This document shows positions 17,532 to 18,787 of a stretch of DNA of 40,489 nt, piece after piece (the stretch's first letter is position 1; every line of letters starts with the position of its first letter). Location of the stretch: the IMG/VR virus record IMGVR_UViG_3300025018_000051, positions 1 to 40,489 of that record. One strand, 5' to 3'. Source of the stretch: a virus. The translations under genes and the position numbers were made by a program. The notes under the pieces were generated by a model. The model had not been told where the DNA came from, made no database searches, and saw nothing but the letters and a program-made list of their open reading frames with translations.

Positions 17532-17740
17532 TATAGATCATATTCCCTTACTAATTCCTGCCCCATAATCGGGAGCGGACCTATCCAGCCTGCCACAGTT
17601 CCGGTGACAGGTTCCTTGATGTTCGAGAGCCAGCCTGTGCCGCCAGTAAGCCAAAAACGCACGACCGTAGGCACATCGACGCCGTGCATATAGCAGACAT
17701 AGTGCCCTGTTTCCTTCGGATTGCCTGTCTGGATTTTCAC
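17531..17740 (-). CDS. DUF551-like small protein (paralog of 18784..18981)
   Basis: The GTG start overlaps the TGA of methyltransferase frame B (GTGA). The product is Trp-rich and reads ...VAGWIGPLPIMGQELVREYDL, compared with ...ISQWFGPLPTAQGYDL in the paralog. Confidence 0.55.
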   Translation of the reverse strand: MKIQTGNPKETGHYVCYMHGVDVPTVVRFWLTGGTGWLSNIKEPVTGTVAGWIGPLPIMGQELVREYDL

Positions 17741-18306
17741 AAATCATACTCCAATTTCGTCATTGATTTCTTTGACGACTTCGCAGAACGTTGCCGCCGT
17801 TTCCGCATCGAGCGCGTTTCCGTAGGCGCGCAATCGTCCCACTCTTTGGGAAGCCTCATTAACCAGCGGGAATGTGCCGGGTTCAACCGGCCTCCACTTT
17901 CCATCCCGGCAGTAGAGCCAGTCAACAAGCGTCCGTCCGAGCATAGGCGGATCGGTCCTGTCAGGATTGCCGCATGATTGAGTGTGATGTTCCGTGTCTT
18001 GAAATCCGGTGACGGGTGTCGCAAGCAATCGTTCGTCGTCGTCGGCCATCCTGCTAGTTGTGCGGTCATCTGAATGTCCGAGACGCAAATCCCCATTGAT
18101 CTGCCTGTCTTGGCTACTGACTTTTTCTTGCGTTCCAAAAATTGCTCTGGCGTCCCGTTCGCTGGATTGCTCACCGATGTCGGCCAACCCGCCAGCACCG
18201 CTTGCCTCGGAAGCTGATCCAGCCTGGTCCGCCCATCCTCGCACCGGGTCACCATTCCCGGCGTATCCTTCCAATCGCGTGCCGAAGCTGTCACCCATCC
18301 CGACAA
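17737..18306 (-). CDS. methyltransferase target-recognition/C-terminal region encoded in the +1 frame relative to 17744..18787 (ORF open up to 18714; expression mode unknown)
   Basis: [66 protein letters not shown]. I recall these as the hallmark variable region/C-terminus of a proteobacterial phage C5-MTase family. It ends LEYDL plus the GTGA junction cassette. A possible TTG start at 18306 lies 7 nt after AGAGG. Confidence 0.5.
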   Translation of the reverse strand: [189 protein letters not shown]

Positions 18307-18787
18307 AATAAAGCCTCTGTCTGATGTGCGCACCGTCGAACCCCGCAGCGCACAAATCGCTTGCCCCAAAGGCGTATCCCGTTCCTTCCAAGTCAGCTTG
18401 TACAAGATCGAGCCATGCGAGCGCGCTTGCAACTTGCTCTCCAACGATCGTTGAAGGTCGGCACTGCTCAATGAGATTGGACCAGTAAGGCCACAGGTGA
18501 CGTTCATCATCAAATCCTTTTTGTTTTCCGGCATTGCTGAAAGGCTGGCACGGACAAGAACCTGTCCAGATCGATTGATCATCTGGCCACCCTGCACGGC
18601 GCAAAGCGTGTGACCAAACCCCAATTCCCGCAAAGAAATGGCATTGCGTAAATTCCAGCAACTCGAACGCTTCCACGTCCTGAATTTTCCGTTCATCCAC
18701 GATCCCCGGCGCAATATGTCCCGCAGCGATAAGATTGCGCAGCCAGTCCGCTGCGAAAGGGTCGGGTTCGTTGTACCATGCTGTCAC
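17744..18787 (-). CDS. DNA (cytosine-5) methyltransferase, frame A (catalytic motifs)
   Basis: Motif I CHFFAGIGVW, motif IV GSCPCQPFSNAG, motif VI-like IVGEQV, motif VIII HIRQRLYFVG, and C-terminal LRAYGNALDAETAATF (motif X-like). The ~150 codons in between are G/D/R/S-rich with no motif. The GTG start is in a GTGA overlap with the upstream gene. Confidence 0.8.
   Translation of the reverse strand: MTAWYNEPDPFAADWLRNLIAAGHIAPGIVDERKIQDVEAFELLEFTQCHFFAGIGVWSHALRRAGWPDDQSIWTGSCPCQPFSNAGKQKGFDDERHLWPYWSNLIEQCRPSTIVGEQVASALAWLDLVQADLEGTGYAFGASDLCAAGFDGAHIRQRLYFVGMGDSFGTRLEGYAGNGDPVRGWADQAGSASEASGAGGLADIGEQSSERDARAIFGTQEKVSSQDRQINGDLRLGHSDDRTTSRMADDDERLLATPVTGFQDTEHHTQSCGNPDRTDPPMLGRTLVDWLYCRDGKWRPVEPGTFPLVNEASQRVGRLRAYGNALDAETAATFCEVVKEINDEIGV

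Follow-up and report, generated by a model that had tools for sequence, protein, structure and literature searches.

The arrangement closest to the gene described here is that of M.EcoHK31I (Escherichia coli HK31, YGGCCR), a C5-cytosine methyltransferase in which the beta polypeptide, the bearer of motif IX, is read from the alpha gene in a different frame (PMC2836561; PMC3404938). Its alpha polypeptide holds motifs I-VIII and X without IX, and beta is translated from an internal initiation site (PMC2836561; PMC3404938). Fragments of C5-methyltransferases can complement each other, and the fold can accommodate a break between motifs VIII and IX, as the natural two-chain M.AquI of Agmenellum quadruplicatum shows (PMC3404938). 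Here we analyse a methyltransferase gene in a viral sequence of 40,489 nucleotides (nt), IMG/VR record IMGVR_UViG_3300025018_000051, positions 1 to 40,489; this whole stretch is called the window below. As in M.EcoHK31I, which was compared by description only, the same stretch of DNA is used in two frames of one strand. We call these A and B, with B at +1 relative to A, and their products alpha and beta. The overlap of this gene pair is unusually long and widespread, and the two products are most likely the catalytic and DNA-recognition subunits of one enzyme.

A listing of the open reading frames (ORFs) of the window places both frames of the methyltransferase gene on the minus strand. The ORFs and all the motif strings quoted in a preliminary description of this DNA lie where it had put them (Table 1). 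The +1 frame of the window stays open for 345 codons, against 37 for the +2 frame. This length is beyond chance: synonymous-codon shuffling of A attained 345 open +1 codons in just 3 of 2000 trials. A starts at a GTG within GTGA, where its start overlaps the stop of the upstream gene. At the other end, A stops 7 nt ahead of B, and the TGA of B overlaps the GTG of the next gene.

This layout extends across a large family. By DNA and protein searches, more than 200 cultured phages carry the gene, as do 68 complete E. coli genomes. About 170 loci were fetched through frame A, and 169 of them were scored for openness. In 168 of these, more than 80% of A is open in the +1 frame as well (median 91%), whereas the longest open stretch of the +2 frame covers 18% at the median and never more than 47%. 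Among loci fetched through frame B, the A frame is open across B and bears PCQ in 67 of the 67 that could be scored. Eighteen of the B-fetched loci were re-inspected (13 without a B pattern match and five of the six without an A C-terminal match); 17 have the two-frame layout, and the other, L248, has no A-type ORF by the PCQ pattern. Relatives of frame B are abundant as well: 6653 of 8000 scored candidates are significant at about 90% coverage, and a profile search with B reaches 18,027 clusters (50% identity), including 8,103 with E ≤ 1e-30.

Databases already hold both halves of the pair. In PHROGs the two frames match distinct families, all labelled "DNA methyltransferase": A matches phrog_363 over its full length (3e-71), and B matches phrog_31772 (1e-37) and phrog_1008 (4.5e-25). 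The annotated methyltransferases of eiAU, SI7 and Eho59 have the frame A architecture, and a second long, B-like ORF is also open on the same strand; in two GenBank phage records, K1G (ORF31/ORF30) and PhiXhv-28, both ORFs are annotated as DNA methyltransferase. A prophage of E. coli ETEC (enterotoxigenic) H10407, a finished genome, carries a member (L260, NC_017633.1 2990000-2991013) of which RefSeq annotates A only (WP_001213770.1, 337 amino acids (aa)), while an intact 294-aa frame B ORF is present and unannotated. The architecture therefore recurs in independent loci of phages, prophages and metagenomes, and the two-frame layout is a family trait and no accident. Literature searches, whose coverage was incomplete and which are weak evidence of absence, returned no paper on a two-frame arrangement in this phage family and no report of methylation activity for any of its members.

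Selection along the gene was read from a codon alignment on frame A of 159 distinct loci, using the entropy at each codon position. In A codons 1-80, position 3 has 1.2-1.8 bits against 0.25-0.8 at positions 1 and 2, which indicates single coding in A. In codons 81-165, position-3 entropy falls to the level of position 1, indicating that both frames are constrained. From about codon 170 to 285, the most variable position is position 1 of A, that is, the wobble position of B, as expected for coding in B only. Codons 286-315 have low entropy at all three positions, again pointing to constraint on both frames, and from codon 316 onward the pattern returns to that of A-only coding. Four-fold degenerate sites of conserved A residues follow the same course. 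Their entropy averages 1.78 bits up to codon 79, drops at codon 82 and averages 0.81 bits (range 0.06-1.9) through codon 153, and codons ≤80 differ from codons 81-165 with a Mann-Whitney p of 1e-6. The nine such sites in codons 286-315 average 0.39 bits, and those at codons 323-325 are back to 1.6-1.8 bits.

Substitutions counted in 12 closely related pairs were divided into those synonymous in A only and those synonymous in B only. From the A start to motif IV the counts are 235 and 29, respectively; in the first dual-coded block they are 128 and 62, in the middle block 144 and 354, in the second dual-coded block 18 and 31, and in the A tail 55 and 32. The two dual-coded blocks also have the fewest substitutions per nt (0.077 and 0.065, compared with 0.12-0.20 elsewhere). 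Stop codons complete the picture. None of 137 loci has an A-frame stop in the middle block, where synonymous shuffles of B leave A without a stop with a per-locus probability of only about 0.125 and the third frame has 5.3 stops on average. Conversely, B is stop-free through codons 81-165 in 159 of 159 loci, against an expectation of 0.20. Because stops are avoided in A through the middle and in B through codons 81-165, both frames are full-length and maintained.

Selection thus runs from A only, through both frames (81-165), B only with A kept stop-free, and both frames again (286-317), to A only. Both frames are upheld as full-length reading frames under purifying selection; the stretch open in two frames measures about 0.9 kb, of which about 350 nt is under double constraint. 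A genuinely dual-coded gene was among the explanations offered in the preliminary description, and this one is borne out: synonymous sites of A are frozen where B is conserved, and A is stop-free where only B is selected. The test it proposed, whether relatives keep both frames open and show dips in synonymous rate, gives a positive answer on both counts (168 of 169 loci open; 0.81 and 0.39 versus 1.78 bits). Its view that frame B is meaningless over the catalytic half has to be given up, since B is conserved from about A codon 81 and constrains the synonymous sites of A there.

It had also considered an assembly error or recent indel, which the recurrence of the layout in 168 of 169 loci fetched through A and 67 of 67 scorable loci fetched through B rejects. 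More broadly, we regard it as extremely improbable that the pattern is an artefact or a product of decay, whether an indel, a pseudogene, or a non-coding frame B under nucleotide-level constraint such as RNA structure or codon bias. The window is a single metagenomic contig, and chimeric frameshifted versions of the gene do occur in databases; however, the same architecture is found in independent loci that include the finished H10407 genome, stop avoidance is confined to the two frames, the middle block accumulates substitutions with the coding periodicity of frame B, and a real protein domain has been inserted in frame B of a close relative, L004.

Alpha appears to be the large catalytic domain of a C5-cytosine methyltransferase, an activity that we infer from its sequence. 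It carries motif IV (PCQ, with the catalytic Cys), an ENV-like motif VI and motif VIII (QxRxR). PF00145 of Pfam covers residues 70-166, which span motifs IV-VIII (E = 4e-14), and the relatives' profile aligns to M.HhaI residues 71-174 (E = 1e-14). Motifs I and X, which bind AdoMet in this enzyme class (FxGxG and GNxV), are recognised here from sequence patterns: the hidden Markov model alignment of the motif I region with HhaI residues 3-32 is weak (0.9 bits), and no profile match reaches motif X, where the pattern is YGNAL and G323, N324 and A325 are invariant. Conservation is confined to about 170 N-terminal and about 50 C-terminal residues, the latter with the consensus DWLxCRDGKWRPVEPGTFPL...RVGRLRAYGNA. 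The middle of A, residues ~170-285, is unalignable among homologues, and it evolves as an out-of-frame shadow of B. With no conserved sequence between motifs VIII and X, A has no target-recognition domain (TRD), and neither a TRD nor motif IX stands between VIII and X in this one chain. The catalytic core is common to alpha and the M.HhaI-type monomers (PF00145), but the catalytic chain here lacks TRD and motif IX and, unlike those monomers, has about 50 N-terminal residues ahead of FAGIG.

Within these first residues (A residues 1-56; 18620-18787, minus strand), two stretches look like motifs II and III, YNExDPxAAxWLRNL and PGxVDERxIxDV, although both come before FAGIG. The N-terminus of A may have the permuted motif order II-III-I-IV, and a model of a relative places three beta-alpha units ahead of the motif IV strand. 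Comparison of the N-terminal 48 residues of A with the PDB, and BLASTP against M.HhaI, gave no support for a motif II/III-like N-terminus.

The product of frame B has four parts. An N-terminal tail free of constraint is followed by a conserved segment, then by GW(P/V)TP modules, numbering from one to many, and by an invariant end. The consensus of the conserved segment is ..SLSARQAxxxGLLTSGTxG...GSTLYxLTWKxRxTPSGRxIxALRASxxRTS. The conserved end fits the motif IX pattern, an assignment made by eye and position only, and lies about 14 nt upstream of motif X of A. This stretch resembles LHPRECARVMGYPDSY of M.HhaI. Because the B piece falls between the motifs of A, the DNA keeps the canonical order (I-VIII, recognition region, IX, X), with the middle in the +1 frame. 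In several relatives, B continues beyond its usual end. In L001 (Edwardsiella phage eiAU; 893-2311, minus strand) it runs stop-free into an N6-adenine methyltransferase gene, giving a 472-aa B-Dam ORF with PF05869 at residues 298-435, while the record annotates Dam separately. B extends more than 100 nt past the A stop in four other loci, and the translations of L051, L081 and L107 run into unrelated sequence.

Where B begins can be followed across the relatives. In every locus frame B is open by A codon 43 at the latest, and its constraint sets in at about codon 81. A B-frame ATG stands at A codon 37 in 108 of 159 loci, and in 76 loci, about half of the relatives, a start at codon 37 (ATG or GTG) has a canonical Shine-Dalgarno sequence at the right distance. 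This sequence arises from the rare arginine codon AGG at codon 33 followed by AGC or AGT at codon 34, which together form AGGAG 8 nt before ATG-37. AGG occupies codon 33 in 64 of 158 loci, compared with 3 at codons 17 and 63, which encode conserved arginines in the A-only region, and AGR-33 and ATG-37 co-occur (66:9 versus 45:39). Position 9 of the B profile, equivalent to the codon-37 start, is also where most called B proteins begin. Additionally, the close relative L004 (1653-3342, plus strand), which has the same junction cassettes as the window, contains a genuine endonuclease VII/HNH domain of about 210 codons (phrog_3322, 1.9e-25). It is inserted in frame B, between motifs VI and VIII of A, and frame A is still open there, over 560 codons.

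These observations suggest that B is translated independently from well upstream of motif VIII. In the window, the candidate starts are TTG 18714, ATG 18696 (the first ATG of frame B, with GGGG 7 nt upstream) and ATG 18582. The preliminary description had proposed two polypeptides, with the second starting at TTG18306. Two polypeptides are the best-supported mechanism, but that start does not fit, since B is constrained from about codon 81 and open from codon 43 or before. Its other proposal was a +1 frameshift after motif VIII, at a "switch point" whose sequence (18297-18311, reverse complement) is CTTTATTTTGTCGGG. The T-run there codes for conserved L-Y-F in A and F-I-L in B. From the four-fold and codon-position patterns, B is already constrained 85 codons upstream of this point, and A remains open as far as the conserved motif X, so the shift at the T-run is not supported, though frameshifting might still serve as an additional route. 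The constraint on B, the AGGAG/ATG-37 signal and the L004 insert all point to a start of B upstream of motif VIII, and neither a T-run shift nor the TTG 18306 start agrees with them.

Programmed frameshifting into a single chain, with a +1 shift after motif VIII into B and possibly a -1 shift before motif X, is on the whole very unlikely. It would restore the canonical order I-VIII / TRD / IX / X, and it suits the position of A and B between the GTGA cassettes, A beginning at the upstream one and B ending at the downstream one; the short step of about 14 nt from motif IX to motif X would likewise suit a shift back. In programmed frameshift genes of the prfB, dnaX and phage tail G/GT type, however, the second frame is needed and constrained only past a conserved shift site, and the zero frame ends soon after. 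Here B is selected, and stop-free beyond expectation, 85 codons upstream of the proposed site, and A stays open for about 180 codons past it in all loci, ending in a conserved motif. The roughly 120-codon middle of A, open in 137 of 137 loci, would be needless for a shifting ribosome, and an internal Shine-Dalgarno sequence and ATG for B are selected in many relatives. No X XXY YYZ heptamer was seen in frame B near the B-to-A position, by eye, in the window only and without a systematic scan. Two conserved shifts in one gene would, as far as is known, be unprecedented.

Natural fusion ORFs bear on the same question. A chimeric query joining A(1-168) to the C-terminal half of B finds many natural single ORFs, some of them "DNA cytosine methyltransferase" entries in RefSeq, and these A(N)+B(C) fusions look like normal methyltransferases minus motif X only, which would favour a frameshifted product. 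An AlphaFold model of one of them, P0187, has a C5-methyltransferase core with a predicted local distance difference test (pLDDT) score above 90, and Foldseek matches it to HhaI, HaeIII, DNMT1 and others at probability 1.0; its B half is mostly below 50, with the motif-IX-like helix best predicted, up to 89. In L177, L178 and L179 a 1-nt frameshift joins A(N) to B(C), and B(N) and A(C) are intact in the other frames. Opposite chimeras, B(N)+A(C), are called "hypothetical". The top matches of the respective searches contain at least 49 of these and at least 59 A(N)+B(C) forms. Junctions are scattered over many positions of the middle, and at most one of the 169 A-fetched loci is chimeric. Fusions of both polarities with scattered junctions are what random 1-nt indels would produce, since any such indel in a gene open in two frames yields a long chimeric ORF. 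Sporadic mutation or sequencing error is therefore the best account of the fusion ORFs, which are not taken as evidence of a fusion product. Nor do they count as support for frameshifting, since B(N)+A(C) forms occur in similar numbers and the junctions lie at many positions. Phase variation at a homopolymer was also rejected, as the L177-L179 junctions do not lie at long runs.

The probable explanation is a dual-coded phage gene from whose mRNA two polypeptides are made that form a two-subunit C5-methyltransferase. Alpha would start at GTG 18787 and provide FAGIG (I-like), PCQ (IV), GEQV (VI) and RQR (VIII), with this core joined to a C-terminal motif X helix by a stop-free linker of unconstrained sequence. 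Beta would have an internal start of its own before A codon 81, in the window ATG 18696, TTG 18714 or ATG 18582. It would supply a conserved segment of about 85 residues at its N-terminus, which overprints motifs IV-VIII and possibly docks to alpha, followed by GWPT(P) modules in variable number that would take the place of the TRD, and by the motif-IX-like helix. The active enzyme would then form by association of the two chains, as happens in M.EcoHK31I and when fragments complement each other.

Several points weigh against this explanation. The window has no AGGAG/ATG-37 signal and offers only weak Shine-Dalgarno-like sequences, and the position of the B start codon varies among relatives. 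B has no match in Pfam or NCBIfam, searched with the single sequence, or among PDB sequences, searched with the profile, and its conserved N-terminal segment has no assignable function. A structure model of B alone is poor (mean pLDDT 61, predicted template modelling score 0.34), and its Foldseek matches in the PDB are noise (best E = 0.37, cyanase). Because this model is poor and has no structural match, the idea of a small domain in B rests on sequence motifs only; such a model would suit a subunit that folds on its partner and on DNA, although it proves nothing. The natural single-ORF A(N)+B(C) proteins, some in RefSeq genomes, mean that a fusion is at least encodable. Translation of B, the complex and methylation are all deduced from sequence comparison.

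Some of these points would also suit B as an independent overprinted protein, for example in DNA binding, regulation or anti-defence, with A alone as the enzyme and no second subunit. We consider this unlikely. The lack of a match for B in Pfam, NCBIfam or the PDB is compatible with it, as are the accessory domains of B in relatives (endonuclease VII/HNH in L004, the run-on into Dam in eiAU) and the habit of most annotators of treating A as the whole methyltransferase. Against it, A has no conserved sequence from VIII to X and hence no TRD, the C-terminus of B fits the motif IX pattern and is located directly before X in the DNA, and all 67 classifiable B ORFs overlap a PCQ-bearing A frame; one further inspected locus, L248, shows no A-type ORF by that pattern. 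A bolder form of the two-subunit explanation is plausible, though we stop just short of favouring it. It holds that the enzyme is an obligate two-subunit one, that a single-chain ancestor was split out of frame between VIII and IX/X and rescued as two chains, that the N-terminal ~85 residues of beta arose de novo while the recognition region of alpha was reduced to a spacer, and that this is the most widespread long same-strand overlap in double-stranded DNA (dsDNA) phages.

Set beside M.EcoHK31I, the two-subunit gene described here displays both likenesses and distinctions. The distribution of motifs over the two chains fits by pattern, an internal start for beta appears likely here too, and a second polypeptide in another frame within the alpha gene is indicated at the evolutionary level. 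The M.EcoHK31I beta is small (construct C23, ~23 kDa) and has motif IX only, in contrast to a beta of 319-325 aa here beside an alpha of 347 aa. Unlike that beta, the one here includes the entire recognition-like region as well as a conserved N-terminal segment that overprints motifs IV-VIII. The alpha of M.EcoHK31I is said to hold the TRD, whereas alpha here has only a linker and the conserved repeats are in B. The overlap here, about 90% of alpha, is far longer, and EcoHK31I is part of a restriction-modification system, whereas here a phage or prophage gene has no adjoining restriction enzyme. In AquI, two consecutive genes, which overlap only briefly, encode an alpha with I-VIII and a beta with IX-X; the alpha here retains motif X, and the overlap is about 0.9 kb.

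Long same-strand overlapping genes are also known from phiX174 and MS2. The lambda genes Rz/Rz1 are a further case of overprinting, in which a second protein lies in another frame of an existing gene (PMC9409062). Compared with Rz/Rz1, phiX174 and MS2, the overlap described here is about 0.9 kb long, with about 350 nt doubly constrained, and it occurs in large-genome dsDNA phages and in more than 8,000 protein clusters. The two products here appear to be parts of one enzyme and not unrelated proteins.

Table 1. Features of the two-frame methyltransferase locus in the window
Feature	Coordinates	Strand	Remarks
Frame A ORF (alpha), 347 aa	17744..18787	-	C5-methyltransferase catalytic core, unconserved linker, motif X; starts at GTG 18787
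Frame B ORF (beta), +1 relative to A	17737..18714	-	325 aa from TTG 18714, 319 aa from ATG 18696
A codons 1-80, A-only selection	18548..18787	-	holds FAGIG; B start candidates TTG 18714, ATG 18696, ATG 18582
FAGIG (frame A)	18620-18634	-	
PCQPFS (frame A)	18536-18553	-	
Dual-coded block 1, A codons 81-165	18293..18547	-	A: motifs IV (end), VI, VIII
Dual-coded block 1, frame B product	18293..18547	-	ASLSA...ILYKLTWKERDTP...RTS
GEQV (frame A)	18431-18442	-	
RQRLYF (frame A)	18305-18322	-	
SGWVTAS (frame B)	18283-18303	-	
Middle block, A codons 166-285	17933..18292	-	B selected (GWPT repeat modules); A a G/D/R/S-rich linker, stop-free
LAGWPTS (frame B)	18175-18195	-	
LAGWPTT (frame B)	18037-18057	-	
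Dual-coded block 2, A codons 286-317	17837..17932	-	A: DWLYCRDGKWRPVEPGTFPLVN...RVG; B: includes motif-IX-like stretch
Motif-IX-like stretch (frame B)	17839-17886	-	
A-only tail with motif X	17744..17836	-	YGNAL 17810-17824; B ends here as unconserved basic tail
LEYDL (frame B)	17740-17754	-	
Junction cassette GGAGTATGATTTGTGA	17737..17752	-	A stop TGA 17744-17746, B stop 17737-17739, ribosome-binding site, next-gene GTG 17740

The junction cassette recurs around the locus. Besides the copy at the end of the methyltransferase gene, exact copies lie at 18978-18993 and 20055-20070, both on the minus strand, and variants at 22109-22124 (minus) and 28694-28709 (plus). These are five matches at up to 3 mismatches, a number reached in 0 of 100 shuffles. 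The cassette gives several neighbouring genes an ..EYDL C-terminus, a GGAG ribosome-binding site and a GTGA stop/start overlap, and the same junction device is found in the relatives L004 and L179. Two small ORFs on the minus strand flank the methyltransferase, at 17531-17740 (69 aa) and 18784-18981 (65 aa). Both end in W(I/F)GPLP...(E/G)YDL and may be paralogues, judging from this shared ending; a Pfam search matched neither. The stretch 14886-17531 (minus strand) encodes an 881-aa SNF2-family helicase (PF00176, PF00271) whose SNF2 domain is broken by a LAGLIDADG_3 segment (residues 341-396) with the look of an inserted intein or homing endonuclease.

For annotation, the consequence is direct. 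Pipelines pick one frame: RefSeq calls A "DNA cytosine methyltransferase", and metagenome callers often call B "hypothetical". With one-frame calls and chimeras annotated as intact methyltransferases, thousands of database entries are incomplete or misleading. The member in E. coli ETEC H10407 makes direct testing possible, and the naturally split, modular recognition subunits, with their variable GWPTP count, could serve the engineering of split methyltransferases. To our knowledge, few long same-strand overlaps outside small viruses are well supported, and they are often disputed. With an overlap signal present in hundreds of independent sequences, this family is an excellent natural system for studying the sharing of one sequence by two proteins and the de novo birth of a protein segment by overprinting. 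If the two-subunit explanation is true, the oddity of M.EcoHK31I extends to a major phage family.

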